Source: a virus
Lineage: Duplodnaviria; Caudoviricetes
Length of the DNA stretch: 64,000 bases
Virus record (IMG/VR): IMGVR_UViG_3300034106_005441
Location: 577 to 64,576 of that record
Direction: 5' to 3' (one strand)
Under the pieces are notes generated by a model. That model saw nothing but the letters and a program-made list of their open reading frames with translations, was not told where the DNA came from and did no database searches. The stretch's first letter is position 1. Every line of letters starts with the position of its first letter. This document shows positions 20,003 through 60,083 of the stretch, piece after piece. Both the position numbers and the translations under genes were made by a program.

Positions 20003-20054
20003 ACGAAGGCCTCCGTGCCTCAGTTATTTGTGTGCGTGTCCGTGCATAGCGAGT

Positions 20055-20062
20055 AGTATACA
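20055..20062 (-). promoter_or_regulatory. Candidate -10 element (TGTATACT) upstream of the sheath gene
   Basis: Similar (T/G)GTATA(C/A)T boxes lie upstream of other genes at 22279, 27159 and 56266. Confidence 0.45.
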
Positions 20063-20097
20063 CAACAACTCGTGCAACAAAAAAACACCTTGTTAAA

Positions 20098-20820
20098 TTA
20101 ACCGGACAACAAATCTGATGCCTTGAAGACAATCCGCTTGAGGCGCGGCGCGAGGGGCTGAAGCGACCAAGCTTCTTCGGCCACATACGCTACAGTGACT
20201 GGGACGGCATAGCCCTGAGTCACTTCTTGCACTTCTCCAACACCGCCGACCTCTGAGACGTAGAACTTAAAAAAGTTCATCTGCTCTCGAATCAGCGGCG
20301 AGAAAAGTATTAAAAACTTAACAACCTCCGTTGCTAAAAATTCGGTTTCGGCGCCGTTTTGGGACAGACAAAATAAAGTGTGGCTGCCGTCCCAAAACCC
20401 CGAGTAACTTACCTCACCAGTATAGTAGTTTGTTTCAGCCCTGTCACCAACTACTTTAGAATTCCACTTCCAACCATTTCTTTTAATTAGAACGGCCGGT
20501 CGTTTGTCGGCTGTGTTGGGCGCCCATCTAGTAATACTTTCTATCAAAATGCCGCCCGGATTCAAACCACTATCCGGTTCTTTCCAACCGCCAATTTCTT
20601 TAATGTGTCGGCGGACTTTGGGGTCTTCGATGTTTTGTGGGTCGGAGAAATGGCCGATGAGTAATTGGCGCAAGAAACCGGTCATTACATGCGGCCGCAT
20701 GCCATAAGAGCAAAGAGCGCTTACCTTTTCGACGCGGTTCTCTGCCGCCGTGCCGGCAGGAAATTCGCCCTCTAGGTGATCGTCTTGGCTTTCATTGTTA
20801 GTTTGCGGGCAGTCAGCCAT
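20098..20820 (-). CDS. Putative tail completion/terminator protein
   Basis: 240 aa between the neck and sheath genes; KRPAVLIKR motif. Confidence 0.55.
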   Translation of the reverse strand: MADCPQTNNESQDDHLEGEFPAGTAAENRVEKVSALCSYGMRPHVMTGFLRQLLIGHFSDPQNIEDPKVRRHIKEIGGWKEPDSGLNPGGILIESITRWAPNTADKRPAVLIKRNGWKWNSKVVGDRAETNYYTGEVSYSGFWDGSHTLFCLSQNGAETEFLATEVVKFLILFSPLIREQMNFFKFYVSEVGGVGEVQEVTQGYAVPVTVAYVAEEAWSLQPLAPRLKRIVFKASDLLSG

Positions 20821-20950
20821 TGGTGTCGTCCTTTGTTTCAGGCCAGAATTTTAACTTTTCTGTTGTCTTTTGCTCGGCTTTGTTGCGCAGAGTGACTGTT
20901 GGCCGCATTTTAATTTTTTGCCCGTACAGTGATATCTTTTTACCCAACAT
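20813..20950 (-). CDS. Small basic hypothetical protein (45 aa)
   Basis: Below the ORF-track cutoff; MLGKKISLYGQKIKMRPTV...DDTNG fills the gap and its stop overlaps the next start. Confidence 0.45.
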   Translation of the reverse strand: MLGKKISLYGQKIKMRPTVTLRNKAEQKTTEKLKFWPETKDDTNG

Positions 20951-20961
20951 AGCTTGTCGTT

Positions 20962-22272
20962 TCATATTTTCCAGAAATCCTCGTCGGGGTCGATTTGCGG
21001 CTGTACCGTATACACCACACCGCTTTCTGGCGTAGACACAAAATTGTCATCCTCTGTTTTAAGGAACGATGGATCGCCGTCTTCGTTGGTCTCACCGAGC
21101 GGGAACTGCGGCACATAGGTCGGAACCAGTAACTCCGGCGGAATGGTGACAGTGACGTTTTTTGTGTCGGGACCGTATTCTCCTGGCTTTTCGAATAAAA
21201 CAACGTAGTCTCCGGCGTCTAATCGGACAGACCGAGTCCAACGACCGTTGACGCGTGTCGTCGTTTTCGCGAGCGCCAGCGTTCTGTTTACATTTAACCC
21301 TCCGGCGTCAAAAACGACTTTTCTAAATACGTATACGTCTGCCCCGACGACACCGCACCCGCCGGCTAAAGTGTAAGCCAGTTCATCTTGGCCGCCGTAA
21401 TCGTGATCTACGGGAATTGCGCCGCACCCCAGCATTGGAAGAGCGGGTCCCGTTCGGGTCGACGGCTCTCCGCCAATTTCAACAGCATAGATGGTGTTAC
21501 TAAATGGAATTAATCCCATGCGCACTTGATAGACAATCGGCACGCCGCGTAAAGCCGCCGCTACTTGAATGGTTTCGACTACCCAGCGTTCGTCTGAGGA
21601 ACCGTTAACCCAGATGTCGTCTTTATTGAGCCCGGGAAAACCGATTACGCGCGCGTCTACATACGGGTTCTCGCGCGTGGTGCCCTTCGGCTCGCCGACG
21701 TCGCTCTGCTCGTTCTGCGGCGACAAGTCCCAGCACTGCATCGCCTGCGCGGGGTGGTAGCCGACTTCAAAGCCGGTGCCATTGCAGACCGGGCAATTGG
21801 CGTCTGTTACTTCGCTCGACAACTCATCTCGGCACCTCGGGCACGGCACCCCATAACGCATTGGTTTAATAAGGTAGCCGGGAATAGACACCAGTTTATG
21901 GCGCAGTTCTTCTTTCCGGATAATCTCGCGCGCTAACGTCCAATCTCGCGTTGTTAACTCGCCGAAGACGTTGGCGGCCTGAGATACGTATACATTTTGC
22001 GGAGTTGTTAATTTGACGCGATAATGCGTCATTAACGTATAGCCCGCTTCGCGCCACGCCGAGTCGTAAGCGAAATAACCGTTTGTAACTGGCGCGCCTA
22101 CGTCTACCCAGTCAGTAGCGTCGCGCAGCCCGGTCCGGCCGAACTGTAGTTGAAATACGTACGGTCCCGGTTCTTTAAACAGTTTCTCTAACTGCCACCA
22201 GACGCGGGAAACGCCGCGTACCATGTGGTCTACAGATACACGGCGAAACGGGAAAATGCGTGCTTGGCTCAT
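20962..22272 (-). CDS. Putative neck/head-closure protein with Zn finger
   Basis: CPRC...CPVCNGTGFEVGY motif; located between the head and tail genes. Confidence 0.55.
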   Translation of the reverse strand: MSQARIFPFRRVSVDHMVRGVSRVWWQLEKLFKEPGPYVFQLQFGRTGLRDATDWVDVGAPVTNGYFAYDSAWREAGYTLMTHYRVKLTTPQNVYVSQAANVFGELTTRDWTLAREIIRKEELRHKLVSIPGYLIKPMRYGVPCPRCRDELSSEVTDANCPVCNGTGFEVGYHPAQAMQCWDLSPQNEQSDVGEPKGTTRENPYVDARVIGFPGLNKDDIWVNGSSDERWVVETIQVAAALRGVPIVYQVRMGLIPFSNTIYAVEIGGEPSTRTGPALPMLGCGAIPVDHDYGGQDELAYTLAGGCGVVGADVYVFRKVVFDAGGLNVNRTLALAKTTTRVNGRWTRSVRLDAGDYVVLFEKPGEYGPDTKNVTVTIPPELLVPTYVPQFPLGETNEDGDPSFLKTEDDNFVSTPESGVVYTVQPQIDPDEDFWKI

Positions 22273-22295
22273 AGGCTGATTATACCTCGACCGCT

Positions 22296-22346
22296 GATAG
22301 CTAAAAAAAGGGCCCGGGGGAGAGTCGCGATGCTCTCCCCCGGGCC
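22296..22346 (-). terminator. Intrinsic terminator with T7-AGCTATC tail
   Basis: GGCCCGGGGGAGAG...CTCTCCCCCGGGCC stem followed by CTTTTTTTAGCTATC on the minus strand. Confidence 0.8.
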
Positions 22347-22349
22347 GTC

Positions 22350-22850: not shown

Positions 22851-22856
22851 GCCACT

Positions 22857-27138: not shown

Positions 27139-27170
27139 GTGTATGCTCCGTTTTCATCAGTATACAAACA

Positions 27171-27228: not shown

Positions 27229-27654
27229 TCACGTGGGGCCAGTAGCACCCGTGGCACCAGCAGGACCTGTTGCACCGCCGGGGCCCGTGGCGCCCGTAGC
27301 GCCGGCACTGACGGCAAAACCGCCACCGCCCGCACCCTGCCACGACGGATTCGACGTGCCGACTTGGCTCGACGAATTCATCGCCAGTTCCTTGGTGACG
27401 TTGCCAGTCTCACTGAGCAGGTACACCGAAGGCGACTTCACGATGTCGAGGAGGTTGTTGGTCAGGGCGCGCTCAAGCGCCTTGAACTTACGCTGGCTGC
27501 GTTGAGCGCCCAGCTTGGTCACAAGGTCGCCGGGAACGGTGTACGTGGCGTTGTTAGCCAGCGTCTTACCGTGGTCCCCGAGAAACCCAAACGCCATGGT
27601 TTTACCCGAGACGTTTTTTACAGTTGTATAAAGGTCAGAAGAAGTTGTGGGCAT
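27229..27654 (-). CDS. Virion-associated protein with short collagen-like tail
   Basis: C-terminal GATGATGPGGATGPAGATGATGPT (Gly-X-Y repeats). Confidence 0.6.
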   Translation of the reverse strand: MPTTSSDLYTTVKNVSGKTMAFGFLGDHGKTLANNATYTVPGDLVTKLGAQRSQRKFKALERALTNNLLDIVKSPSVYLLSETGNVTKELAMNSSSQVGTSNPSWQGAGGGGFAVSAGATGATGPGGATGPAGATGATGPT

Positions 27655-27665
27655 TGTTCACTCCA

Positions 27666-28055
27666 TTACTCTGCGGATTGCATGGCCGCAGATGCAGCGG
27701 CTTGCAGTGTCAGTACAGCATTCGCAATTTCAGGTTGGTCGGCGGCGAGAGCAGCGACCTCGCGAAAGGTCGCCTGCTTCTCGGCCTGCCCGCCCATGCC
27801 CGACGCAGCCAGCACCGCATCAAGCTGCTGATTTACAGCAGCCAGACCATTGTGCCGCGCCGCAGCGGTTTTTTCCTGCTCGGCCGTATAGAGCACATGG
27901 AGCTTTTGAGCAGCGGCCCACATTTCTGCGGCTTCGCCCTCGGTCGCAGGCGCAATGCCAGCGGACGCGAGCTTTTCGAAGAAATAGGGGGCAGCCAGTT
28001 GCGCCACAACCGTGGCGTAAGCTTGCTCTGCCGCTTCCTTGATAGTATCAGCCAT
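27666..28055 (-). CDS. Hypothetical head-module protein
   Basis: 129 aa, Ala-rich; KEA, KLA, KTA and KQA motifs; AAGGAG RBS. Confidence 0.65.
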   Translation of the reverse strand: MADTIKEAAEQAYATVVAQLAAPYFFEKLASAGIAPATEGEAAEMWAAAQKLHVLYTAEQEKTAAARHNGLAAVNQQLDAVLAASGMGGQAEKQATFREVAALAADQPEIANAVLTLQAAASAAMQSAE

Positions 28056-28083
28056 TTTTAGTGCTCCTTGTTATTTATACGGC

Positions 28084-29010
28084 TCAGACAAACGTTACCT
28101 TGGCCAGACCGTTCGTGTGACCGAACGAGCCGCCCTGCGTGTTGTACGCAAAGTACTCAAGCATGTAAGCTTCACGACGGATATACATCGTGGTGGGCTC
28201 AAGCTCGTAGTTCTTGCCGATAAACTTCGGCGAGGCGAACATGTACATCACATCGTTCGGGACGAGATTGCGCTTGATCGATACGATCCAGCGGCAGTTG
28301 AGGAAGTTGGTCTCCGCCCAACCGTTCTTGATGATGTCCTGCGAGAAGTCACCACCCATCTCGTCGCGGCCAAACTTGAGGAGCTCCTTAATCGTGATGT
28401 TATTCACGAGGCAGGTCTCCACTTCGAAGTGGCTCGGAGTCGAGGGCATAACCTTCAGGGCGTCAACAATCGTCTCGCGGGTGATACCGCCCGAGATCGT
28501 GACGTTCTGAGGAACGCCCGAGAGCGGGTTGTTAGTATCGACCGTGCCGACGGCGGCGTCCATCGCGGTGATGAACTTGGAGTCTTCCTCAGCCAGCATG
28601 TCCTTGATCATGTTGTCGGACAGAACCTGACGGATGTCGATGACATACGTGCGCAGTTCGTCGACGTCCTTCACAGCGCGGGGCGACACGATCCGGTCAA
28701 ACATGACGCGGTAGCGCGGGCCACGGATGTAGAAGTTGATCGGGAGCGTCGCAAACGGGAGCGACACAGCTGCCGGGGAATCCGGCTCCTTGTCGACCAC
28801 CTTCACCGGCTTGTCCGTGTCAACCTGACGATCAAGTTCGTCGTTGGTGATGGTCAGCGGCGGGATGATACGACGGTAGAAGCCGTCTTCACGCATCTTG
28901 GTGCGCGTGAAGTCGTTAACCGCATCAATGGCCTGCTTCTGCATGCCGGGTGTATCAAGCTGCTCAAACAGCGTTTCGTTGAGCAGTTGGATTTCTTGCT
29001 GAGTGGGCAT
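28084..29010 (-). CDS. Major capsid protein
   Basis: About 308 aa following the protease, scaffold and decoration genes; HK97-like features (RTKMREDGFYRRIIPP, IKDMLAEEDSKFI); biased codon use; start at ATG 29010 behind GGAGG. Confidence 0.75.
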   Translation of the reverse strand: MPTQQEIQLLNETLFEQLDTPGMQKQAIDAVNDFTRTKMREDGFYRRIIPPLTITNDELDRQVDTDKPVKVVDKEPDSPAAVSLPFATLPINFYIRGPRYRVMFDRIVSPRAVKDVDELRTYVIDIRQVLSDNMIKDMLAEEDSKFITAMDAAVGTVDTNNPLSGVPQNVTISGGITRETIVDALKVMPSTPSHFEVETCLVNNITIKELLKFGRDEMGGDFSQDIIKNGWAETNFLNCRWIVSIKRNLVPNDVMYMFASPKFIGKNYELEPTTMYIRREAYMLEYFAYNTQGGSFGHTNGLAKVTFV

Positions 29011-29045
29011 TTTAAAGACCTCCATGTCTTTTGTTAGGGATTAGT

Positions 29046-29603
29046 TCACGGTGTCCAGTTGGTCGCGCCCGGAAGCCAGACGCACCAGAACGAAAGGGCT
29101 TGAATACCATTGTGGTTCGTTGTGGCACCACTGGAAACCACGCCCACAACCGGGTCTACGTACTGCACGACGCCGTCGTTGGTCAGCAAGCCGTCACCGA
29201 CAGCCGGAGTGGCCGTACGTGTGGCGGTGAGCAGATCGCCCGGCTCGTAGTCTTCACCGTCGTCGAACTCCGTGGTGGAGATTTCGTAGCCGCCGGTCGC
29301 TACAAGGCCGGACAACTTGCCAGTCGGGGCGACGGCGAGGTGCATAAACTTTCCGCCGGCAGTCGTGCCGGGGTTAGCGACGTCAGCGTCGGTGCTGCCG
29401 TTAAGCAGGAAGATCGCCACGTTCGTCTTGTGGACGCCCGGAACGAAATCACCGCTGGCGTCCACGTGAACTACGCGACCGCGCTTCACGTCAAAGGTAA
29501 TGCTGGGCGACAGCTTGGCGCTGTAGTCGAGCGACGCCATATCGAACCAGCCCTTTTTGACGTCAAGGCCGTGTTCAAACATCAGATCAGGAGCGTTAGC
29601 CAT
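29046..29603 (-). CDS. Putative capsid decoration/cement protein
   Basis: 185 aa, beta-rich, immediately upstream of the capsid gene; TTEFD..YEPGDLLT motif. Confidence 0.55.
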   Translation of the reverse strand: MANAPDLMFEHGLDVKKGWFDMASLDYSAKLSPSITFDVKRGRVVHVDASGDFVPGVHKTNVAIFLLNGSTDADVANPGTTAGGKFMHLAVAPTGKLSGLVATGGYEISTTEFDDGEDYEPGDLLTATRTATPAVGDGLLTNDGVVQYVDPVVGVVSSGATTNHNGIQALSFWCVWLPGATNWTP

Positions 29604-29641
29604 TTTTAGACCTCCGTGTCTAAGAGAATTATGTTTTTAAA

Positions 29642-30073
29642 TCAGGCAGTGGGCGGATTGAGACCAAGGCCGGTGAACAACTTCACGTCGGAAGCCTTGA
29701 GGCGACCATCGCGGGCACCCACATACCCGCTCGTCAAACTTGTCGAAGGATCGTAACCAGCGGTCTTTTGCTGACCCACCGGCGTACCAAGGCGCGCCAT
29801 TTCAGCGGCGTTCTTGTGCGACGCCAACTTGACCACCAGTTCCATTGTGCGAACCGGGTCGTGCAGTGCCGCCTCAAGCGCTTCCTTCTGATGCGATTCA
29901 ACACGCTCGTGTTCAACGCAAGCCTTAACGGCAGCGGGAATGAGCGCGGCAAGCTTTTCAGCCTGCGCTTCTTGCGTCTTCATCACGGCTGCAGCCTTAG
30001 TCAGCGCAGCATCGGAAAAACCGATGTAGTCGATGACTTTCTGCACAAGCGTGTTTGTCTTATTCGCGGGCAT
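29642..30073 (-). CDS. Hypothetical head-module protein
   Basis: 143 aa, helical, GGAGG RBS. Confidence 0.65.
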   Translation of the reverse strand: MPANKTNTLVQKVIDYIGFSDAALTKAAAVMKTQEAQAEKLAALIPAAVKACVEHERVESHQKEALEAALHDPVRTMELVVKLASHKNAAEMARLGTPVGQQKTAGYDPSTSLTSGYVGARDGRLKASDVKLFTGLGLNPPTA

Positions 30074-30090
30074 TATTAAACCTCCGTAGT

Positions 30091-31485
<1,395 letters not shown>

Positions 31486-38585: not shown

Positions 38586-38631
38586 AGAGCCACCTCCATG
38601 CGGCAGATATTAAACTCATACCCCTACCAAT

Positions 38632-40584: not shown

Positions 40585-40593
40585 GGCACTTCA

Positions 40594-40818
40594 TCAGTTT
40601 TTAGGCGGTGGCGGCAGTTCGTGCACTTTTGGCGCCGGAGTCTCTACCCCCGACATTTTCAGCACAGTCGCAAAATCTTCGTCGCCCACTGCAGAGTACA
40701 TAATGCCCTCGGCAACGTGGGTGGCGACAAAAATAGGATTGTGCAGGTCGTCTTCGATAACGACGGTGTGCGCTTTCGCTTCCGCAGGAATTAAATTGTG
40801 CTGCGTCTTAACCAGCAT
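40594..40818 (-). CDS. Small hypothetical protein between the RNAP genes
   Basis: 74 aa, GGAG RBS, overlaps the upstream stop. Confidence 0.6.
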   Translation of the reverse strand: MLVKTQHNLIPAEAKAHTVVIEDDLHNPIFVATHVAEGIMYSAVGDEDFATVLKMSGVETPAPKVHELPPPPKN

Positions 40819-41524
40819 GATTCGTCAAACTCCGGCAAAGAGCAGCCACGGCGCTTGCTTTCGTTTGAAGGTCCACGTTATCTGGCGATGAGACCGTAGA
40901 TGTCACGCTCTGATCTACCGGACGGCCGATCCGGGAGGCGTGCTGGTCGACAGCGTCCCACCAGTTCGCCATCTTGGGTGGGCCGCCGGCTTCCGGAGGC
41001 ATGCCGCCTGCGGCGGCCGGGTCACCACCCGCGCCCTGCTGCGGCGGCGGAGGCGCCATGGGGCCACCGGGAAGCGCAGTTTCAGCCGGCGGGGCGCCAG
41101 TTGTGCCGGGCGGAAGCACAAGCGATTCCGGCGCAACTTGCACGCCCATGGCGTTCATAATCGCCGTAAGCTGCTGCTGCATGTTGTACAGCCGGTAATC
41201 AAGCATCTGCATCATTTGCTCGGGCTTTAGTTTTTGCCCACCGGCGGCGCCAGCCGCCGGAGGTGGCGCGGGTTGCGCCGGCGGCAATCCGCCCATCATC
41301 GACGGGTCTGTCATGCCCGGAGGAGCCGCGGGCGCCTGCTGTGCGGCCGGATCGCCGGCGGGGGGCGCAGCGCCTGCAGCGGCCTGCATCGGCGTAGCCG
41401 GCGGCATGACGCCCATATCATTCGGCATGGGGGCGGCGGCTGATGGCGGCACAACGGCCGACTTTTCCAGCAAAGACTGGCGGGCCAGCGACAAAAGTTC
41501 CGGATTCACAGTATAAGACATCAT
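40808..41524 (-). CDS. Pro/Ala-rich hypothetical protein between the RNAP genes
   Basis: 238 aa, low complexity, GGAGG RBS, KSA and KMA motifs. Confidence 0.65.
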   Translation of the reverse strand: MMSYTVNPELLSLARQSLLEKSAVVPPSAAAPMPNDMGVMPPATPMQAAAGAAPPAGDPAAQQAPAAPPGMTDPSMMGGLPPAQPAPPPAAGAAGGQKLKPEQMMQMLDYRLYNMQQQLTAIMNAMGVQVAPESLVLPPGTTGAPPAETALPGGPMAPPPPQQGAGGDPAAAGGMPPEAGGPPKMANWWDAVDQHASRIGRPVDQSVTSTVSSPDNVDLQTKASAVAALCRSLTNHAG

Positions 41525-41544
41525 TACCTCCGTGTAATATCAAT

Positions 41545-44500: not shown

Positions 44501-45960
44501 GGCACGTATTTAATCTTGCCGTTTACTAAAGCCGCGACCATAGGCAGATCAGACTTTTCTTCGCCGGGAAACATCAGCGGCATGTCGGCGAGTTCTTGCG
44601 GAGTTTTATACTCAGTCTCGCCAGTCTGAGAGTTTTTTACGGGCACAACGAAAGTGTGTAAGTTCTGCGCGGATTTACGGGCGCCAGCAGCAAAACGCAT
44701 ATCGACACCCACTTTGCCGCTTTCAGGCGTGCGCAGATAGTCGATGAAGCCAAAATGACTCGGCTGCACGCTACGAGATTCGGCGGGGACTGCGTCGAGG
44801 GACCCAATACCGCCTTCGCCCAGTCGAGTTACGCGCGTTTGGTGGTCGAAGATTTCCGCAGGGTTGATTTCTTCGAGACTGGAGCCAAGGCCAGACCCGA
44901 TGAGCGCTGCGGTAATCGACTTGTTAAACACGCCCGACGGAATGTGATCCAGAGACTTCTTGGCCGTGGCTTTCCAGAGCAATTGGCGCAAGGCTGTCTT
45001 GTCCTTGACGAAGCGCTCGGAAATTAAATCTTCCGGGCCAAAGACTTGCTGATAAGTCATGCTATCGCGGTCGTCAGAGTCGGCCTCTTTGCGATTTACG
45101 GCAATCAGCTTCTTGGTAATATCCAGAATCGCGTCGGGAGTGAGGTTCTTGTAAGGCTTGCCGAGCGTGCGTTTGGTGACTTCTTCGTCCAACTCTGTCT
45201 TGTTAAACTCTGCCGCGATAGCCTTGATCTTAGCGATCTGGTCTGCGTTGGCGTCTGGTTTGAAAACGAGGCGTTGATAAAGTTTGTCGAGCGTGCCGGC
45301 GTCGCCCTTCTGCATGTTAACCGCAGTGATTTCGTTACCCCAAGTTTCGCGCATTTGCTTGTCAGTCACGCCGAGCGTCTTGAGCAGCGGCATGAGCGGA
45401 ATCTTAGCCTGCCCGATCTGAATCTGGAACTCACCAGACTTGGGGTCCATGTAGTACCGGTGAGAGCGACCTTTACCGGGCAGCGTATTAACGTGCGACT
45501 CCAGTTCGCCGTTCTCCTTCTCGCGCGTGAAAACACCCGGGCGCAAACGGAGTTGATGCGCAAGCGTGTACTCAACGCCTTTGTTCACGAATGTGCCGGA
45601 GTCCGTAAGGTACGGCACATTGGCGATCGTGGCTTGACGCGACGCGACGGGCTGCTGCGTCTTGTTATCGATCAGCGTCCAAGTGCCAGTGAGCTTACGC
45701 GCCAAAGAGCCGCGCGTGAGCACAGCTTTCTTCTGGTCTTTGCGGCTGTAGCGGTCGGGGCCGGCGTATCCGACGTTCTGTAACTGCAGAGTGTACAGGT
45801 CGTTCTGGATCGGCTCAATGCTCGACGCGCTGCGCAACGCTTCGTTAAAGATATTATCGCGCAGAGCGGGCACATCGCCGAATGCGCGAGTTTGCGGCTG
45901 CGAAATAGCCGGCGCAGTTAACGGCGGCAGTGGCGGCGGTGAAAACTGGTCAGGCATCAC
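41545..45960 (-). CDS. DNA-directed RNA polymerase, beta fused to the beta' N-terminal half
   Basis: Beta motifs (HFGFID..TPESGKVG, MGSRMFTQALPL, GRNYEDAVVIS, GDKITGRFGDKGV, MKLHH, GAKRVGMLE) run in-frame into beta' motifs (GGLFD, LPPAFRP, GRAVITP, NRAPVLHR, catalytic GADFDGDAM). Confidence 0.92.
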   Translation of the reverse strand: MMPDQFSPPPLPPLTAPAISQPQTRAFGDVPALRDNIFNEALRSASSIEPIQNDLYTLQLQNVGYAGPDRYSRKDQKKAVLTRGSLARKLTGTWTLIDNKTQQPVASRQATIANVPYLTDSGTFVNKGVEYTLAHQLRLRPGVFTREKENGELESHVNTLPGKGRSHRYYMDPKSGEFQIQIGQAKIPLMPLLKTLGVTDKQMRETWGNEITAVNMQKGDAGTLDKLYQRLVFKPDANADQIAKIKAIAAEFNKTELDEEVTKRTLGKPYKNLTPDAILDITKKLIAVNRKEADSDDRDSMTYQQVFGPEDLISERFVKDKTALRQLLWKATAKKSLDHIPSGVFNKSITAALIGSGLGSSLEEINPAEIFDHQTRVTRLGEGGIGSLDAVPAESRSVQPSHFGFIDYLRTPESGKVGVDMRFAAGARKSAQNLHTFVVPVKNSQTGETEYKTPQELADMPLMFPGEEKSDLPMVAALVNGKIKYVPKKDAQYTVPNMDSTFSALTNMVPMKSMVKGQRVIMGSRMFTQALPLANAEAPFVQSEKADTPGTSHEDEMGEKLGAIKSQFGGKIESITPDEIILRDQNGQKQVIDLYNDMPFNRKTFWTQTPTVQPGDVVKPGQLLATSNFTDKNGSAALGLNLRVGYLPFRGRNYEDAVVISESAAKRLTSQHMYQNEAEWDDNTHVGKKAFMSLFPSEYDKKLLDNFDDNGAIKKGMTVNFGDPLVLVAKKRDQVYGKVHRGRGGSFANETITWDHHSPGIVTDVEHTKKGVSVVVKSQSQMEVGDKITGRFGDKGVVSEIVPDGQMPADKDGNPMEILVSPLGLINRVNPAQIVEAALGKIAAKTGQPFKIKDFDDQRDLIEYAQQELAKNGLSDTEDLTDPESGRKIKGILTGHRFFMKLHHTAESKGQGRSTGGYTAEGTPAKGGSEGAKRVGMLELGALLSHGAGKVVRDSKMVRGQANPEYWTQFMAGYDPPLPKVPHVYEKFVNQLRASGVNTVRTGTKTHIMALTDKSIDELAGDRELTSAETVDWKGNLKPIKGGLFDETLTGGHGGNRWAKITLHEPMPNPIMEEPIRRVLGLTEKQFRGILAGQDKLGDSTGPAAIQDALKRINVPKAIDQAREDIKSGRKTIRDAAVRRLGFLKGAEATGVNPESWMLTKVGVLPPAFRPVSTMGAKKLPLVDDANYLYKELLESNNVLKEASGAFADYGNERLSLYDSMKAVTGLGDPQHPKNVERNVRGFLSKIFGDSPKFGTMQRKLLSSTVDLVGRAVITPNPDLDMDEVALPEEKAWEIYKPFVVRGLVRRGLPRMEALRAVEDKNKAAFDELDKQMNSKPIVINRAPVLHRYGVMAFYPRLTKNKVMEVNPVITKGFGADFDGDAMQYHVPSTDDAAKEAVEKMLPSKNLFATANFKAHYVPNKDYQTGVYLASSKMNNRSKPRVYRSKKDALSAYRRGEIDVDTPVHIVEDKA

Positions 45961-47217: not shown

Positions 47218-47565
47218 CTATTTAGGCGGAATCATGCCGTAAACCTGACACCACTCCAACCACACTCTGTAATGTTTTTTTTCTTCGTCCCAGTGGTTTT
47301 CACGCCGCTGCATCATATACCAGCCGTTCACGATTTTATCATTTATGTCGTCAAATTCGATTTTTTGCTGTTCGTCCCACAACTCAAACATTTTTGATTT
47401 AAAGTCGAGCCGGAAATCGATGTTTTCGAGTTCGTCTTGCTTTAAATTTGGCGTCACGCCCGACGCGGCTAAAACGGGAAAGCCTTCCGGCGTGCCTGGC
47501 CAATGCAGACGCTGGCCGCCGTGCTGACTGCCTGAAATTTCGCCGAAGTACTTCCGTGTACTCAC
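47218..47565 (-). CDS. Hypothetical protein
   Basis: 115 aa, GTG start with GAGGAG RBS. Confidence 0.65.
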   Translation of the reverse strand: MSTRKYFGEISGSQHGGQRLHWPGTPEGFPVLAASGVTPNLKQDELENIDFRLDFKSKMFELWDEQQKIEFDDINDKIVNGWYMMQRRENHWDEEKKHYRVWLEWCQVYGMIPPK

Positions 47566-48063: not shown

Positions 48064-48064
48064 G

Positions 48065-48556
48065 TCACTCTCCCGGCAGAATTAACTTTTTTGGGGCGCT
48101 TTGGCCAGCCCCCATTGTAAAATCTGGGGCGACATGTTTTCCAGTGTCTCTTCCCAGCGGCAGCGAGCCGGGAAGCGCCGTCGAGAAATTCGCCGCGGAG
48201 GCCAACGAAATCCGGCTTTTACGGTTTGGACGATGTTTAATAAACCACGCATCAACCTTGGGGTCGCTGCGGTCGCCCTGCTCTTTGGCCTCGTACGTAC
48301 AAGCGATCATCTCCTCAACCGCCTTAATAAGCTCATTGCGGTCGGCCGATAGCCACGACGCCTTGGTCGGATTCTCGGCGGCAATAGTGCGCAGCCGGCG
48401 TGCCTCGTCAGAAAGTGCCTGCGCCCGCTGTAAAAACTCGCGGCGCGTCAGGACGAAAAATTCACCGGTGTCTTCGTCGTGCAGACAAATGAAACCGTTC
48501 TCGGCGTAAAACTTCAGTCCTCGAAACGTATAACACTTGCCGGTAACTTTATGCAT
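48065..48556 (-). CDS. Hypothetical protein
   Basis: 163 aa; sigma70-like TTGCCG-N17-TATACA upstream (about 48605-48633). Confidence 0.6.
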   Translation of the reverse strand: MHKVTGKCYTFRGLKFYAENGFICLHDEDTGEFFVLTRREFLQRAQALSDEARRLRTIAAENPTKASWLSADRNELIKAVEEMIACTYEAKEQGDRSDPKVDAWFIKHRPNRKSRISLASAANFSTALPGSLPLGRDTGKHVAPDFTMGAGQSAPKKLILPGE

Positions 48557-48669
48557 CCTTGCACCTTCCGTAGCGTATAGCGAGCGTCAGCCTCCGTAAT
48601 GCACTGTATATCGGACATTACGTATTTCGGCAACGGCATTCTATTTCCGGATAATTGCGCCGCAGCCAA

Positions 48670-48930
48670 TTATCGCGAAATAGTGTCCCCGCGCGGTGGA
48701 CCCTCGCAGTCGGGGCATTTCGTCCATTCATGGTTGTCGCCGGAGCGCACACGACCGGTGCCATTGCACGTGGTGCAATCTTTTGTCGGCACTTTTGGCT
48801 TCACTACTTTTGGTGTCGGCAGCAGCGACGCATAAGCGGCATCGGCGGCGATCAAACCCACATAGTCGGGCTGCGTGGGCTGCGGCACAGGAAAAAGAAA
48901 CGCCAATAAGGCCAGTAACCACTTGAACAT
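48670..48930 (-). CDS. Small exported/membrane protein with DnaJ-type Zn finger
   Basis: Hydrophobic N-terminus MFKWLLALLAFLF; CTTCNGTG...CPDC. Confidence 0.6.
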   Translation of the reverse strand: MFKWLLALLAFLFPVPQPTQPDYVGLIAADAAYASLLPTPKVVKPKVPTKDCTTCNGTGRVRSGDNHEWTKCPDCEGPPRGDTISR

Positions 48931-50831: not shown

Positions 50832-51644
50832 TCAGGTTTGCGGCACAAGTACATACGGCCGGCCGTTAATCATAATCCGCCCACCAATTTTTAGGCCAGC
50901 GTCTTTTGTTAACGGATACTTGCTTTTGCGCTTGCCATACAATTTTACAATCTCTTCAATATCGCCTGCTCGGGGCGCTGTGCAGTTCGGATCGTAATAG
51001 GGTGCCATTAAGTTACCAGCGTTTAAATGCGCCAAACCCAACGCGTGACCAATCTCGTGGCACATGACCGCGACCGCCATGTTAAAAGACCAGTCTTCGG
51101 CTTCGTCAAACATTTGGTCGAGTTGCATATTCTCCGCTACGCCACACGGAAGCTCGCTCCACGCTAATGTGCCGCCGCGAGCGTCGAGATTGTTTCTCTT
51201 GCCGACACCCGAACGCGCGTAAATGTTGGCGTGCTCCTGGCGCTCTACACGCGTGGGTTCCAGATTGCAGACCTCGGCCCACTGCGAAAACGCTACGTCA
51301 TACGCTTCTTTAATTTGCTCGTCGCTGAGGTTAGGAAGTTTAATGTCGTGGTAATACGTGACTTTGCTCATAGGCCACTTGCATGGGTCGGCAGCTGAGG
51401 TCAGATTAAAGTCCGGCAAGCCGCAGCGTAATTTACGAATGCGGTGCGCGGTTTTTTCATTCACCTCGCCGTTCGCTTCTAAACCATTAAATTTTTGATA
51501 AGCGCGCACGGCTTTCTGCAATTCGGCGCCCTTGAGCTTCTTTACAGCGGCCCAAGTTTTATCGCCGAAGTAACCGTAGTTGTACAGAAACTTGAGCACG
51601 TCATCGACCGGCAACACGCTATTGAGTGTAGACTTCCGTGTCAT
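50832..51644 (-). CDS. Matrixin (M10A) zinc metalloprotease with propeptide
   Basis: PGBD-like prodomain (FLYNYGYF...AVRAYQKFNGLEANG), cysteine switch RCGLPD, HEIGHALGLAH, Met-turn LMAPYY. Confidence 0.9.
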   Translation of the reverse strand: MTRKSTLNSVLPVDDVLKFLYNYGYFGDKTWAAVKKLKGAELQKAVRAYQKFNGLEANGEVNEKTAHRIRKLRCGLPDFNLTSAADPCKWPMSKVTYYHDIKLPNLSDEQIKEAYDVAFSQWAEVCNLEPTRVERQEHANIYARSGVGKRNNLDARGGTLAWSELPCGVAENMQLDQMFDEAEDWSFNMAVAVMCHEIGHALGLAHLNAGNLMAPYYDPNCTAPRAGDIEEIVKLYGKRKSKYPLTKDAGLKIGGRIMINGRPYVLVPQT

Positions 51645-53421: not shown

Positions 53422-55478
53422 TGCGGCCGTCCAAATGCAGCGTTTAACAAATGATCGCCGTTGTTGTAAATAACCTGCTCGGCAAGGTTGGGTTCTTCCA
53501 TTTCACCGCGCATGGCTTTCATGGCCAATTCGTATCGGTACTGCGGGCTTAACGTCGCCATGTACTGCTGGTGATTCCGGCGCGAGTTAATCATAAAGTC
53601 GCCTCGGCGTTTGACGTCCATTAACTGACTGCGCACATTTTCAAACACTGGCTTGTTGTAGTCGTAAACAATCGGACGGCGCAGACTGTACATATTGCGC
53701 AACTGATTCATGTACACGTTTTCGGCTGCTTTTACGGTCGGCGGGATGATAGCTGGATCGGTATGCAGCCTAAATTTCGTGGGCTTGTGCGTGACGCCTT
53801 TGTGGTAGGGTTTCGGGTCGTCTACTATCCAGTCCTGTGGAGCTTTGGCCATAAGCCGCCGTAAGATGTCCGTCTTTTCAGCGTACCGTTTGTTGTCGGA
53901 GTGTTCTTTAGCCAAGAGCAGCTGCGCTAATACGTCTTTGTGCGCGGCAATACTGCGCTTCTCTATTTCTTTGATTTTTTCGTAGTAGCTCTTGTCTTCG
54001 GACAGGTGATCCTTGGCAATTTCTTTGGCGGCTTGATCATTATTTGTGTGTTCGTACTCATGTTTGGCTCCTTCGGCTAACGCGGCTGGGGAAAATTCCC
54101 GATCGGGTAAATTGTCGGCTACACCACCATGTAAAACGTCTTTTTGTCCCGAGCGGGAAAGTTCGGAAGATTGTTTATTTACAGCGTTGTCTATGATGTG
54201 TTGAATGGCTGCCATTCGTCCGTGTGCAACTGGCGGCAACATGAATTGTTTGTCTTGCATCAACGCGAGTGCTTTTTCCGGGTTGTAAAACCTGCGGTTG
54301 GTTGCACTCCAAAAATCAAGATTTTTGTTTCTCTGTTTGTTAACAAAATCAGCTACGACAAAATGCGTGCGTGAGCCCGCAAAGTTTCTGCCCGTGCGGG
54401 CTCTGTAATCATCACTCCACGGATTATCGACTGGCGGTATTGGCAACAAAACCGGATTGGCGGCCTGAATGCCTGTTTCTTCAGCCAGTTCCCGTACGGC
54501 TGCCTGCTCGGGAGTTTCGCCGGGGTCAAGACCGCCGCCCGGAGCCGCAAAAGATTTATCTTCAGCCCACTGGCCGCCATAAATTTTGCCGGTTCTTGGG
54601 TGTCGAGTTAATATCTCAACGCGTTCCCGCCACGGAAGTTCGGAAGCCACTTTCGGTACGGCGAGCGACGGATACCCGGCTGTCTCCTGAAACTTCTTGA
54701 GCCGGGCGGCGAGCAGTTCTTTCTGCTGCTGGCTTCTCAGCCACGCATTGGCTATTAAAGCCAGATCAGTCATTTCTTTGTCGACATTACCGCCGGTGTT
54801 AATCGCAGCCTGCGTGTCTGTCAGATGTTTCGGCAAAGCGGCAAGAATGTGCTCACGCTCGCCCCACTTGGGGGCCAACTTTGTTAAATCTGCCGCAGCG
54901 GCCTTACGTACTTCGTTGTCCTGCAGCACTTTCTTGCGCCGTACAGCGACGGTTATGTGAAACGCGTGGTCGCCATTCATGCGCGGCGACAGGCCATAGC
55001 TTTTGCGAAGCGTGGCGAGTTCCGGGCTCGATATCTCAATCACCCAGACCTTGCTCACGCCATCGACATTGCGGACGTCGATCTCTTTCATACCGCCGAG
55101 CTTGTACGAGAACATGTGCCCGCGCTCGTTAATATTGTCGACGCCGATTTTATTGACTTCGTCGGCGTTCATCACAGAGATATGCGCGTTTAGGACATCG
55201 GCGTCCACGTTTGGCGCATTCATCACGCCGGCAAGTGGAAGCTCAGTGCCGGTTACAGAAAGCGCGTCAAAAACACCGCGCACAAGAGCGTTGGGCACAG
55301 AAAGCAGCAGCCAGCCGGATTTAGCCAGATAGAGCCGGCCAGTGAGCGGGTAATTCGTCGCGGCCTGCTTGTTGCCGCGGTACAGCCAGCCAAAAGCGTT
55401 GCCGGCTTTGTATTCAGGCGTCTCGGCATAAAGCTCGGGCCGCCATGTGCGCTGATCTAGAACTGAGAAGCCATCCAT
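53418..55478 (-). CDS. Multidomain protein: 2H phosphoesterase, NUDIX hydrolase and further small domains
   Basis: Two HxS/T motifs (AHISV, FHITV); NUDIX box GGLDPGETPEQAAVRELAEETG; conserved-looking EGAKHEYEHT..AKEIAKDHL.E...YY domain. Confidence 0.8.
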   Translation of the reverse strand: MDGFSVLDQRTWRPELYAETPEYKAGNAFGWLYRGNKQAATNYPLTGRLYLAKSGWLLLSVPNALVRGVFDALSVTGTELPLAGVMNAPNVDADVLNAHISVMNADEVNKIGVDNINERGHMFSYKLGGMKEIDVRNVDGVSKVWVIEISSPELATLRKSYGLSPRMNGDHAFHITVAVRRKKVLQDNEVRKAAAADLTKLAPKWGEREHILAALPKHLTDTQAAINTGGNVDKEMTDLALIANAWLRSQQQKELLAARLKKFQETAGYPSLAVPKVASELPWRERVEILTRHPRTGKIYGGQWAEDKSFAAPGGGLDPGETPEQAAVRELAEETGIQAANPVLLPIPPVDNPWSDDYRARTGRNFAGSRTHFVVADFVNKQRNKNLDFWSATNRRFYNPEKALALMQDKQFMLPPVAHGRMAAIQHIIDNAVNKQSSELSRSGQKDVLHGGVADNLPDREFSPAALAEGAKHEYEHTNNDQAAKEIAKDHLSEDKSYYEKIKEIEKRSIAAHKDVLAQLLLAKEHSDNKRYAEKTDILRRLMAKAPQDWIVDDPKPYHKGVTHKPTKFRLHTDPAIIPPTVKAAENVYMNQLRNMYSLRRPIVYDYNKPVFENVRSQLMDVKRRGDFMINSRRNHQQYMATLSPQYRYELAMKAMRGEMEEPNLAEQVIYNNGDHLLNAAFGRPQ

Positions 55479-55638
55479 GGCAGCCCCGTGTATTTATTTT
55501 TGGGCCGCCGTCGCTGTCGTGGAGTAATTTTCTGGGTTGGCGGCGGAAACAGTACTGCACACCGAAATTGCGTGCGCCGATAAAAACATGGCCCAGCCGC
55601 AAAGCGCAGCCATTACCCACGCCATCAAGCTCAGTTGG

Positions 55639-56783: not shown

Positions 56784-56887
56784 GAAGACATCCCTGTCGT
56801 TATTAACACGCTGCCGGCCAAAAACAGAAGCGCCCATCGTACCAACTGACGATGGGCGCGTCCACGATGCGACAGAAAAAAAAATAG

Positions 56888-57922: not shown

Positions 57923-57924
57923 GA

Positions 57925-58287: not shown

Positions 58288-58697
58288 GGCGTCCAGACCT
58301 TGTGTGGGTCAACGGCGCCCTTACCGAAGACAGGAAGAGTTTCGCAGACCGGGAACATATCTTCAAGCTTTTTAAACACGCTACTATCCGTGGCGCCAAC
58401 ACCTTCAGGCATGTCGTCGATCCAGATATCAATCGTATATCCCATTGCCAGCGTGCGGTCGCGCTTGGGCGAATGATTACAGAATATCAAGTCCGTGAGC
58501 AGCTTGAACGTGGCTTCGCCGAACACCGTCGCCAGTTCTAGCCGGCTGTGCGGGGTTTCCGTGCGCCCGGTGACGCAAATAACCTTGTGACCGCGCTTAA
58601 CCGCGTGCTGCACCATAAACCGCCAGAATTCGACGTCGCTGGTAAACGTGCGGTCGAAATCGAGGGCAATAGTTGTCTGGCGAAACGGCGTCGTCAT
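58284..58697 (-). CDS. HAD-superfamily hydrolase
   Basis: IALDFDRTF (motif I), VTGR (II), K (III), IWIDD (IV). Confidence 0.8.
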
Positions 58698-58707
58698 GAC
58701 GACAAAA

Positions 58708-59157
58708 CTACGCTTTCAGTATGTGCCAAGCGTCGCGCCACACGCTGTCTGGTAGAAAAGAAATTTTGTGACGACAGTATAAAATTTCAGCACCGGGCAC
58801 GATAAAAAATTGCCGCAATTCTGTGTGCACAAAGATAAAAACGTCAATCTCGTTTTCCGAGTACTGACTTGTTTTGCCGGGTTTTTGACGCCGGAATCGG
58901 CAGCTTTTGTGCCGGCGGACTGAAAAACTACACAACCCGTTTGTCGTTTCAGTTTTTACCGCCGTAGATTTTACTTGCACTCGGTTCAATACGTTATTGT
59001 GCGCCGCAATTAAATCGTAACCGATATCGAGCAGCGGCACACACGGGACAATTTGATGCTCGTACATTTCGGCAATGACTAGCGAAACGCCACGCGCGCC
59101 AATTGCCAAGGACCGCGACCACCTATTCGCCGCCGCGGCTTCTTTTAATGCCGGCAT
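58708..59157 (-). CDS. PD-(D/E)XK endonuclease (homing-like)
   Basis: GYDLI...RVQVKS...[11 protein letters not shown] pattern; probable start at ATG 59157. Confidence 0.7.
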
Positions 59158-59192
59158 TGTGTCATCCTTAACACGGCGCCGCAGCTGCAAAA

Positions 59193-59408
59193 TTATTTGA
59201 TATCGCCAGCTTCGATCATAGCCTCAAAAATATCAAAGGCTTTTTTAGCCCGCATCATGTGCAACTGCTGCAAGCCCAGCAGCACATTAGAAAGCTCGTC
59301 GACGTCCACGGTGTCTTCAATAACCGCGTCGGCCAGCAGGCCAATGTCATCTGCCGTGTGCCACGCGTTCATGATCGCCTGCTCTAACTCGAATCTGTCA
59401 TTAGCCAT
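59193..59408 (-). CDS. Small acidic hypothetical phage protein
   Basis: 71 aa, AAGGAG RBS, DRFELEQAIMNAW. Confidence 0.65.
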   Translation of the reverse strand: MANDRFELEQAIMNAWHTADDIGLLADAVIEDTVDVDELSNVLLGLQQLHMMRAKKAFDIFEAMIEAGDIK

Positions 59409-59423
59409 TTTTTCTCTCCTTAA

Positions 59424-59495
59424 CTGCCTGAGTAGGACTCGAACCTACAACCTCAGCATTAACAGTGCCGCGCACTACCATTGTGCTATCAGGCA
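59424..59495 (-). tRNA. tRNA-Asn (GTT)
   Basis: TGCCTGA acceptor stem pairs with TCAGGCA; D-arm AGCACAATGGTAGTGCG; anticodon loop CT-GTT-AA; T-loop GTTCGAG; no encoded CCA. Confidence 0.92.
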
Positions 59496-59570
59496 TTACT
59501 GTCGTCGCCGATGATCCAATGCAACAACAAAAGACCCACGATGACGGTTACCGCGTCATTCCACGTCATG

Positions 59571-60062
59571 TCACACCAGCCGCGACTCAGCCGCGCGATA
59601 CTGGTGCTTGAGCGTGTCGGCGAGAATGCGCCGCAGCTTTTCACAGTCCTCGTAGCTGTCCTGCAACTGGTCTTCGTAAAAGATTTTGAGGTACGCGGAC
59701 TCGACCGGCCACGTGCCAGCCAACGCATCCAACTGTGCAATGCGCTTAGCGTAGTTGTTCACGACTTCTTCTTCCAGCTGCACCGAATGCCCCAGCGCGT
59801 CTTCCACCTTCGTAAACGACGGGAAATTCTTGCCGCTGGAATTAGGCAGCGCAAAATGCAGGCCGAGCAGGCGGTCCAAAAACGCCTGCACGTGCTCCAA
59901 CTCGCCCTTGGCCGCGTTCGTGAAGAACTCTTTATATTCTTCTGCGTGCAAACCAGTGATATAGCTGGCGTGATACAAGTAGAACTGCAGGTGCGTCCAC
60001 TCATTATGCAAATCTTCGTTCATCAACTGCAGAAACTGCGGTAGCGTCAATTGCGACATCAT
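59571..60062 (-). CDS. Ferritin/bacterioferritin-like protein
   Basis: MNEDLHNEW...QFYLYH...GELEH...LEEEVVNNY four-helix ferroxidase-type pattern. Confidence 0.8.
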   Translation of the reverse strand: MMSQLTLPQFLQLMNEDLHNEWTHLQFYLYHASYITGLHAEEYKEFFTNAAKGELEHVQAFLDRLLGLHFALPNSSGKNFPSFTKVEDALGHSVQLEEEVVNNYAKRIAQLDALAGTWPVESAYLKIFYEDQLQDSYEDCEKLRRILADTLKHQYRAAESRLV

Positions 60063-60083
60063 TCTTCCTCCGTGAAAGTGGCT

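Follow-up and report, generated by a model that had tools for sequence, protein, structure and literature searches.

The stretch of DNA analysed here, referred to as the window, comprises 64,000 nucleotides (positions 577 to 64,576) of the IMG/VR virus record IMGVR_UViG_3300034106_005441, which is 64.6 kb long and is estimated to be 32% complete. The window is a fragment of an uncultured jumbo phage, and its minus strand carries all sizeable open reading frames (ORFs). Of its genes, 59 had their starts curated by hand, and these form the basis of the statistics on starts in the window. At a number of starts, including those of a tail-sheath-like gene and of a gene probably coding for the major capsid protein, the mRNA is predicted to form a small hairpin, whose short, weak stem would present, over the ribosome-binding region, a hexaloop A-N-G-G-A-N with C-G as its closing pair. 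A preliminary description of the sequence had listed 14 hairpins of this kind and had ascribed them to a host or phage protein similar to CsrA. On the minus strand, each of the 14 sites was recovered where it had been placed or no more than a few bases away. Most have stems of at least 4 bp; the sites at 51631, 55470 and 56787 reach only 3 bp, and the one at 31473 has 2 bp, which is at chance level.

Ten hexaloop hairpins with stems of 4-6 bp (with G-U pairs accepted) were identified at starts in the window, and one heptaloop hairpin brings the number of good sites to 11. All sites given here are on the minus strand. The Shine-Dalgarno (SD) sequence of the tail-sheath-like gene (start 20002) is covered by GAGGC-ACGGAG-GCCTT at 20006..20021. 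For the 308-aa capsid-like gene (start 29010), AAAGAC-ATGGAG-GTCTTT lies over the SD sequence at 29014..29031, and for its 185-aa upstream neighbour (start 29603), TTAGAC-ACGGAG-GTCTAA was found in the same position at 29606..29623. The heptaloop hairpin, TAAAC-TACGGAG-GTTTA with a 5-bp stem (30077..30093), covers the SD sequence of a 143-aa gene (start 30073), and its 5' arm contains the stop codon of the upstream gene. SD sequences are also covered at a 907-aa gene with the GTG start 38585 (GCCGC-ATGGAG-GTGGC, 38589..38604), at a 237-aa gene starting at 41521 (TATTAC-ACGGAG-GTAATG, 41522..41539), at the gene for a PD-(D/E)XK nuclease starting at 59157 (GTGTT-AAGGAT-GACAC, 59159..59174, with 5 bp and not the 3 bp listed before) and at the gene for a ferritin-like protein starting at 60062 (TTTC-ACGGAG-GAAG, 4 bp, 60064..60077). 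Two overlapping 4-bp hairpins, CGCT-ACGGAA-GGTG and GTGC-AAGGAT-GCAT, occupy 48551..48575 (48551-48564 and 48562-48575) at the start of a 163-aa gene (48556); the one at 48562-48575 had not been listed before.

In other cases the hairpin lies on or after the start codon. GAGTAC-ACGGAA-GTACTT (47546..47563) is located within codons 1-7 of a 115-aa gene with the GTG start 47565. The 3-bp hairpin GAC-ACGGAA-GTC (51631..51642) directly follows the ATG of the gene for a peptidoglycan-binding (PG-binding) M10 peptidase (start 51644), and the loop of GCC-ATGGAT-GGC (3 bp, 55470..55481) contains the ATG of a NUDIX/2H gene (start 55478). The third 3-bp hairpin, GAC-AGGGAT-GTC (56787..56798), lies over the SD sequence of a 151-aa gene (start 56783). 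The site at 31473..31482, GC-ACGGAT-GC after the ATG at 31485, was rejected as a hairpin for its 2-bp stem; it matches CANGGANG and encodes M-A-R-M, and relatives show ACGGACG at this place without kept pairing. The neighbouring genes with a plain AAGGAG SD sequence (28055, 31485) have a hairpin in none of the relatives compared. The targets are not restricted to morphogenesis genes, as had been proposed, and include the genes for the ferritin-like protein, the PD-(D/E)XK nuclease, the PG-binding M10 peptidase and the NUDIX/2H protein.

On the sense strand of the window, 190 ANGGAN sequences were counted, of which 22, 13 and 8 are flanked by stems of at least 3, 4 and 5 bp; for the 77 sequences on the antisense strand, the numbers are 6, 3 and 2. 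As a control, a flank-permutation null was used, in which the 5' and 3' flanks are re-paired among the ANGGAN sites of one class, with classes defined by the curated starts. Among the 35 start-proximal sites, 10 have stems of at least 4 bp compared to 1.09 expected (p 7.6e-8) and 7 have stems of at least 5 bp compared to 0.41 expected, whereas the remaining 155 sense-strand sites show 3 stems of at least 4 bp with 3.33 expected (p 0.65). Hence, the enrichment is genuine and does not extend beyond gene starts, in agreement with the preliminary description, which had seen the hairpins as a feature of translation starts. A strand bias was also found in the complete IMG/VR relative G001, with hairpins at 35 of 544 sense and 5 of 257 antisense ANGGAN sequences. 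The longest stem in the window, with 7 bp (TGGCGAG-ACGGAG-TTTGCCG, 36933-36959, minus strand), is located inside the 907-aa gene far from starts; with this hairpin included, the internal class is at chance level overall. The motif CANGGANG is present in 49 copies compared to 27.5 +/- 5.3 in shuffled sequences, a number reached in none of 100 shuffles, and 41 of the copies are on the minus strand and 12 at starts.

For all start-proximal sites in the window, the loop begins at a base between -15 and +8, counted from the start. In the hairpins over SD sequences, the first G of the loop GGAG is 9-14 nt away from the start codon, and most start codons are found 1-5 nt beyond the stem. The isolated hairpins are weak, with 0 to -6.6 kcal/mol, and minimum free energy folds of 61 nt recover only some of them. 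The term sequestered, which had been used for the translation starts, is too strong, because in most cases the loop exposes the GGAG and the stem ends just short of the start codon. About 10 good sites are present for the 59 genes of the window, and by an automated count about 4-8% of the called genes carry a hairpin in complete relatives.

For proteins of the CsrA family, the binding sites have been described in detail. The Rsm motif is 5'-CANGGANG-3', with the RsmE consensus 5'-(A/U)CANGGANG(U/A)-3', and for the repression of cfcR one motif spanning the start codon suffices (PMC6849547). Systematic evolution of ligands by exponential enrichment (SELEX) gave the CsrA consensus RUACARGGAUGU, with the GGA in hairpin loops and with ACA and GGA invariant in the selected sites (PMC4347634). 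In four complete relatives of the window which encode a CsrA, a GGA at positions 3-5 of a hexaloop is closed by at least 4 bp in 56 of 758 cases (7.39%), compared to 1.07-2.33% for the other GGA registers and 1.96% for loops without GGA; in three CsrA-less relatives, register 3-5 is closed in 14 of 687 cases (2.04%). Loop position 1 was identified as A in 42 of the 51 hairpins of the four genomes, but in only 194 of 521 SD sites without a hairpin (Fisher p 6.5e-10), and 31 of the 51 are closed by C-G. From the loop A, the closing pair and the register counts, a core C-A-N-GGA-N-G is obtained. The pair flanking this core switches from A..U in the clade of the window to U..A in a more distant clade (ACACGGAGGT versus TCACGGAGGA), and AC..GT and TC..GA variants both occur among the relatives. 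Loop position 6 is mostly G, giving GGAG, and not the U of the SELEX consensus, so that the site doubles as a strong SD sequence. The phage hairpins thus show the GGA in the loop of a short hairpin, the extended consensus and the overlap with the SD sequence or the start codon. Judged by sequence, they match the CsrA/Rsm consensus in their letters, in the loop register and in the position over the ribosome-binding region, and the earlier assignment to CsrA/RsmA-type sites is upheld at this level.

A scan of IMG/VR with the capsid-like protein revealed 65 related loci with 53-99% identity, many of them on contigs of about 200 kb, and in the cultured-phage DNA collection no near match to the window was found. 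The IMG/VR relatives are labelled G001-G013 and G018, and percent identities between relatives refer to the capsid protein. For three orthologous starts, 22-nt segments anchored on GGAG were aligned from all relatives having one, and none was dropped for lacking pairing; this gave 39 distinct rows for the capsid-like gene, 39 for the 185-aa upstream neighbour and 29 for the sheath gene. The covariation was 0.360 at the capsid-like site (29014..29031) compared to 0.126 in shuffled alignments, 0.425 compared to 0.181 at 29606..29623, and 0.388 compared to 0.199 at the sheath site (20006..20021), and in each case 0 of 500 shuffles reached the value found. At the capsid-like site the closing C-G is kept in 37 of 39 rows and four of six pairs change on both sides, while at 29606..29623 all five pairs do so. 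Paired cells amount to 73.7%, 81.3% and 67.2% for the capsid-like, 185-aa and sheath sites, compared to 60.8%, 64.0% and 56.7% after shuffling, and at all three sites the true register outscores every slid register. In the relatives, TAGAC/GTCTA, AAGAC/GTCTT, TGAAC/GTTCA, AGCAT/GTGCT and TGTC/GACA were found as stems at 29606..29623, and GGC/GCC, TTAGGC/GCCTGA, TCAGC/GCTGA and GAC/GTC at the sheath site. Stems like AAAGAC/GTCTTT, GGAAC/GTTCC, GGCAC/GTGCT, TGAAC/GTTCA, AGCAT/GTGCT and GATC/GATC interchange, with A[C/T]GGAG as a constant loop and C-G as a constant closing pair. The observation that stem sequences differ while pairing and loop are kept, made before on the window alone, is thereby borne out on orthologous genes.

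The other sites are conserved to a different extent. The hairpin at 38589..38604 is kept in close relatives, and G013 has TGTTCC-ATGGAT-GGAGCA instead. At the orthologs of 41522..41539, G001 has TGTTTAC-ATGGAG-GTAAATA and G003 AAC-ACGGAG-GTT. The hairpins at 47546-47563 and 51631-51642, which lie on or after the start codon and cannot serve as SD sequences, are kept in relatives with other stems or are shifted to the SD sequence, and the earlier point that such sites are more than SD sequences stands. In the G001 ortholog of the first of these genes, the hairpin is kept with an AAGGAA loop and G-U pairs, and in the G003 ortholog ACTG-AAGGAG-CAGT is found at the SD sequence instead of a hairpin after the start. 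The orthologs of the M10 peptidase gene carry TGGC-ACGGAA-GCCA (G001) and ATGGC-AAGGAT-GCCAT (G003), with the start codon within the stem. The heptaloop site at 30077..30093 shows weaker pairing and a variable loop size in relatives, and the site at 48551..48575 is poorly conserved in G001, G003 and G013. The hairpin at 60064..60077 is not retained at the G001 and G003 orthologs, and for 59159..59174 no ortholog was found among the sequences compared. Since 55470..55481 is kept in G001 and G003 without covariation, it is indistinguishable from coding constraint, and 56787..56798 offers no covariation to judge by, because the G001 sequence is identical.

Genes for CsrA were searched with the Pfam profile PF02599 (cut-off 27 bits) in 22 related or comparison records besides the window. 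A match above the cut-off was identified in 11 of them, including 10 of the 13 IMG/VR relatives with a completeness of 90% or more (G001-G008, G012 and G013). The eleventh is G018, a fragment; G018 and G001, both with 97% capsid identity to the window, encode CsrA. The gene is absent from G009, G010 and G011 (90-100% complete), from six fragments (19-78% complete) and from the cultured phages D69 and Arash. The scores are 49.6-89.8 bits in G001-G008, G012 and G018, and 32.7 bits, summed, in G013.

The phage CsrA ORFs have a length of 58-96 aa and align over residues 1-47 with the solved CsrA/RsmE chains 2jpp, 1y00 and 5dmb (E 2e-9). In nine phage copies, M1, L2, V3, L4 and R6 and the last-strand residues R48 and E50 are invariant; this first-strand L-x-L-x-R and the last-strand Arg/Glu are presumably the RNA-binding residues (R44 in E. 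coli numbering). A homodimer model of phage CsrA reached a score of 0.44, compared to 0.00 for the best control, with a partner predicted local distance difference test (pLDDT) score of at least 69 and at least 88% of contacts common between runs, and strand 1 pairs with residues 33-38 of the partner chain in an interdigitated manner. Of 30 proteins solved as pairs, 20 attain the mark for a pass, compared to 1 of 23 proteins solved as single chains; since CsrA dimers have already been solved, the pass may reflect memory of them, and the model shows likeness and not proof. In G006, a tandem CsrA-CsrA fusion was identified in one ORF of 163 aa (L082:1165-1653), in effect a covalent 'dimer'. G013 contains a copy with an insertion of about 20 residues past the first strand (L087:1471-1716), and G012 has two separate copies (L086, L088). 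The CsrAs of the nearest clade (L152:1462-1662, L070:1462-1662, L066:1441-1647) share a C-terminal tail ending with G-L-E-R-P-A, where the canonical chains were aligned to residue 50; this tail might be a docking site for a partner.

In 4 of 10 csrA leaders (G006, G008 and both G012 copies; L082, L083, L086, L088), the SD sequence of csrA itself lies in an AAGGAG hexaloop with a stem of 4-5 bp, for example ATCGA-AAGGAG-TCGAT, while the leaders of G001 and G003 have no such hairpin. This hints at an autoregulation of csrA via its own leader. The nearest bacterial CsrAs, with 43-66% identity, are from metagenome-assembled genomes of Fibrobacteraceae, Krumholzibacteriota and Planctomycetes, and no host was resolved. 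Among the 83 matches seen in the cultured collection, all were records of at most 66 kb or bacterial contigs and none was a jumbo phage; identity to the jumbo-phage CsrAs was below 60% throughout, with 46-47% in the top rows for the first query.

The distribution of csrA was compared with that of the hairpins by an automated pipeline, which for each genome used its own gene caller with uncurated starts, one SD-GGA per gene and the flank-permutation null. Stems of at least 4 bp were enriched in all four CsrA-encoding genomes: 13 were observed with 2.3 expected in G001 (p 6e-7), 12 with 2.3 in G003 (p 4e-6), 18 with 4.1 in G007 (p 2e-7) and 8 with 2.8 in G013 (p 8e-3), the last genome having 8 stems of at least 5 bp compared to 1.1 expected (p 2e-5). 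For the CsrA-less phages, the numbers were 5 and 2.1 in G009 (p 0.06), 2 and 3.5 in G010 (p 0.87), 2 and 2.0 in G011 (p 0.59), 4 and 2.5 in Salmonella phage Arash (p 0.23), and 8 and 4.1 in Vibrio phage D69 (p 0.054). Thus, the enrichment is 3-5 fold in four genomes encoding CsrA and absent or marginal in five phages without it. Of the 9 hairpin loops in the three CsrA-less relatives, only 1 has A at its first position. Since the gene caller missed some true hairpin starts (for example, the in-loop ATG 29025 was called instead of 29010), these counts are conservative. The co-occurrence is the strongest argument tying the hairpins to a phage CsrA.

The reading favoured here, to which we assign a probability of about 0.6, is that a phage-encoded CsrA attaches to the weak hairpins and controls the loading of ribosomes on some of the phage mRNAs, not only on those of morphogenesis genes. 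A dimer of phage CsrA would bind the A-N-GGA hexaloop and stabilise the marginal stem over the SD sequence or the start codon. On about 10 genes of the window, the bound protein would act as a clamp on the hairpin, in competition with the 30S subunit, and the translation of capsid, sheath and other target proteins would come under post-transcriptional control. Left to themselves, the hairpins do not have the stability to block ribosomes, as expected of protein-stabilised sites. The binder is most likely the CsrA-family protein of the lineage itself, and the sites could also be bound by the CsrA of a host that possesses one. The effect would presumably be repression rather than activation or stabilisation, and the late-gene timing switch suggested in the preliminary description is a conjecture. 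Many target genes start a few bases past the preceding stop codon, a spacing at which terminating ribosomes could open the hairpin. For the relief of repression, titration by rising late mRNA or an antagonist may be guessed, and possible outcomes would be a delay, a titration threshold, an assembly-linked feedback, or stabilisation or activation of the mRNA. More tentatively, and with clearly lower confidence, the phages may contain a self-contained CsrA circuit, with their own regulator and about 10-20 conserved operators on their own mRNAs, including those for capsid and sheath. Such a circuit might time the production of virion proteins by titration or serve as a checkpoint of their assembly, without a sponge RNA or FliW of the host type, and relief might come from excess late mRNA or from a phage partner, perhaps docking at the GLERPA tail. 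In a bolder variant of this circuit, CsrA would mark its target mRNAs for preferential translation or protection instead of repressing them.

A number of observations weigh against binding by a phage CsrA. With the Pfam profile, csrA was not found in the 64.6-kb, 32%-complete record of the window itself, so that the phage CsrA-like protein proposed in the preliminary description was recovered from relatives (10 of 13 with at least 90% completeness) but not from the record on which the proposal was based. In an alignment with G001, the window covers the part that runs from about 175.6 kb over the record ends to about 43.9 kb, and because csrA of G001 lies at 156.3 kb, the fragment ends about 19 kb short of the csrA position. 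The CsrA-less relatives are the most distant ones, with 53-60% capsid identity, and the contrast may therefore reflect a single evolutionary event and not five independent ones; D69, although CsrA-less, is borderline (8 compared to 4.1, p 0.054). The csrA-positive Pseudomonas phage PA8, scanned over its first 50 kb with 64 annotated coding sequences, has 3 hairpins compared to 0.62 expected, with the loops CAGGAG (twice) and AAGGAG (once) and no ANGGAN-hairpin class, and in the first 50 kb of the csrA-positive Vibrio phage 219E41.2 there are 0 compared to 0.2 expected. Therefore, the presence of csrA alone does not predict hairpins. CsrA dimers usually bridge two sites per target, although this is not obligatory, and a second GGA or ANGGA within -75..-12 or +3..+48 is not in excess at hairpin genes (42 compared to 530 genes, p 0.1-0.3). 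Exceptions with further GGA sites are the leader of 48556, which with an additional ACGGAGG about 30 nt upstream of the hairpin pair has three GGA in all, and possibly the leader of the sheath gene. A search for FliW in complete relatives gave 0 of 5, and at Rfam gathering thresholds no small RNA of the Csr/Rsm type was identified in G001 or the window, where only tRNAs and a transfer-messenger RNA (tmRNA) were found. Among intergenic regions of at least 150 nt, no region dense in GGA hairpins sets the CsrA-encoding genomes apart. Two GGA-rich stretches considered as a sponge RNA, the leader 48557-48727 and G001 27252-27465, were rejected, since they look like ordinary leader or coding sequence. 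Finally, genes that require the strongest expression are among the targets, which fits a repressor less obviously, and with the loop being the SD sequence itself, selection for an exposed SD sequence could favour such hairpins without any protein.

This last possibility, a protein-independent display of the SD sequence, remains a serious rival, though we consider it clearly less probable than binding by CsrA. The stems would keep GGAGG single-stranded or would shield the 5' side of the cistron from nucleases, and highly expressed genes would be boosted without any part for CsrA. The ideal spacing of the loop GGAG(G), with 9-14 nt from the first G to the start, fits this explanation, as do the position of the best-conserved sites in front of the capsid-like and sheath genes and stem energies (0 to -6.6 kcal/mol) that would not block ribosomes; the missing excess of second GGA sites and the two csrA-positive phages without the hairpins are also in its favour. 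However, pairing with the anti-SD sequence explains neither the A at loop position 1 (42/51) and the closing C-G (31/51) nor the strict register of the GGA, and it leaves the conserved hairpins on or after start codons unaccounted for. In addition, the five CsrA-less jumbo phages have starts that are equally rich in SD sequences but show little or no enrichment. For the hairpin class as a whole, chance pairing around GGAG-rich ribosome-binding sites has a negligible probability and is refuted by the enrichment, covariation and register tests: the flank-permutation p is 7.6e-8 in the window and 2e-7 to 8e-3 in four relatives, the same null gives absent or marginal enrichment in the CsrA-less genomes, and the orthologous sites covary. 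Chance can account individually for the sites with 3 bp (51631, 55470, 56787) and 2 bp (31473).

Two further explanations accept a binding protein and differ in its identity. The sites might be read by the CsrA of the host alone, which would tie phage protein synthesis to host physiology, with the phage CsrA acting on host mRNAs. Phage CsrA homologues have indeed been proposed to manipulate the host, for example the expression of CRISPR-Cas (PMC8450108, PMC11879866), and the presence of CsrA in phage and host is reported to correlate (PMC8450108). The hairpin motif also fits the generic CsrA/Rsm consensus. Salmonella and Vibrio, the hosts of Arash and D69, have CsrA, yet these two phages show no clear enrichment, and within this phage group the hairpin class was found only where the phage encodes CsrA; a role for the host protein alone is thus unlikely. 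Even less probable is recognition by a different phage factor, either an unrelated repressor or an endoribonuclease similar to RegB, which would cut GGAG in the SD loops. The target of T4 RegB is a GGAG in a structured SD context, and most genes of the phage have no known family, which leaves room for such a factor. On the other hand, the RegB family PF10715 was found in 0 of 5 complete relatives, making a RegB-like nuclease unlikely, the motif details match CsrA/Rsm, and a gene for CsrA is present in relatives.

Among the genes of the window, the tail-sheath-like gene (16445..20002, minus strand, 1185 aa), one of the hairpin targets, matches the PHROG tail sheath family phrog_2839 (1.6e-8), and its Pfam match to Phage_sheath_1 is weak and under the Pfam cut-off. 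The 308-aa protein (28084..29010, minus strand) is probably the major capsid protein: in the ESM Atlas, the clusters nearest to it bear the name phage major capsid protein (score 0.98), which is a lead only. Pfam and PHROG searches gave no match for it, and because its AF2 model was too poor (mean pLDDT 51.7, alignment of 18 rows), it was not used for a fold search. Two large ORFs of 1470 and 650 aa (38632-45957, minus strand), including the beta-like gene at 41545-45957 on the same strand, match families of phage multisubunit RNA polymerases of the beta type; in cultured phages, the nearest counterparts, from Vibrio phage D69 and Salmonella phage Arash, are only about 32% identical. By Pfam, further products were identified as the PG-binding/M10 peptidase, the NUDIX/2H protein, the PD-(D/E)XK nuclease and the ferritin-like protein. 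At 59424-59495 (minus strand), between the genes starting at 59408 and 60062, a gene for tRNA-Asn (GTT) was identified, and the complete relative G001 encodes a tmRNA (L074:7248-7602; Rfam 125.6 bits; tag GASAPALAA) adjoining a tRNA gene cluster. DNA of the window is present in sequencing runs (X1-X21) labelled as lake-water metagenome.

A TTTGTATACT-like motif is present in the window in six copies with at most one mismatch, compared to 1.8 expected. Of two copies on the minus strand (20055-20064 and 27159-27168), one lies about 35 nt upstream of the sheath hairpin and the other upstream of the gene 27138, where relatives keep it just past a terminator-like GC hairpin followed by a T run. The motif, with a TATACT resembling a -10 element, is a candidate promoter of the phage. 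In RNA libraries, contigs with about 90% similarity to the window (X22, X24) span 27296-29767, including the capsid-like gene and its neighbours, and one contig of 686 nt spans the start 29010 together with its hairpin; such contigs cannot show transcript ends. They are compatible with a polycistronic transcript, and carry-over of DNA is possible.

Genes for CsrA are known from phages: csrA was identified in 30 of 2517 phage genomes in a study which calls for loss-of-function experiments (PMC7366521), many phage csrA genes are described from GenBank and IMG/VR (PMC8450108), and what CsrA does during the life cycle of a phage was described as not having been tested (PMC11879866). In literature searches, no report of CsrA-type operators on the structural genes of a phage itself was found, although subscription journals and supplements may hold one. 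With covarying hairpins on the phage's own genes and a matching regulator, the window and its relatives offer a testable alternative to host manipulation. If the favoured reading is true, a virus would be using a global-regulator module of bacteria for a post-transcriptional programme of its own. For binding studies and for orthogonal translational switches, the phages provide pairs of RNA and protein that are ready to use.

The recognition of hairpins by CsrA is textbook knowledge. Like the bacterial sites of CsrA, RsmA and RsmE, the phage hairpins have the GGA in the loop of a short hairpin after A-N, the C-G closing pair, the A/U..U/A flank and the overlap with the SD sequence or the start codon; unlike these, they are located on phage genes, mostly with one site per gene and with a G at position 6. 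The phage protein is a small CsrA-family ORF, similar to the homologues of Pseudomonas F116-like phages, of Vibrio phages and of E. coli phage PTXU04 (gp28). However, those earlier phage CsrAs were proposed to act on the host, whereas the phage genome here carries conserved matching sites. In the CsrA-FliW-flagellin system of Bacillus subtilis, CsrA binds an SD hairpin on the mRNA of an abundant structural protein and translation is coupled to assembly, with two sites present in hag. The proposed CsrA sites of the phage likewise include SD hairpins on probable genes for abundant structural proteins, and a coupling to assembly would be speculative here; different from B. subtilis, FliW is absent from the five complete relatives and mostly one site per gene is present. 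For the plasmid pQBR103 of Pseudomonas, the Rsm homologue RsmQ is described as taking control of host behaviour (PMC9928087). RsmQ is a comparable case of a mobile element with its own CsrA-family regulator, but a regulon on the genes of the plasmid itself is not described in the abstract. Translational operators of phages, like the MS2 coat-replicase hairpin and those of T4 RegA and T4 gene 32, are RNA elements at the ribosome-binding site to which a phage protein binds as a repressor. While the proteins of MS2 and T4 are phage-specific, both the protein family and the operator would here be of the bacterial Csr/Rsm type, and according to the automated count, about 8-18 genes in each genome carry the operator.

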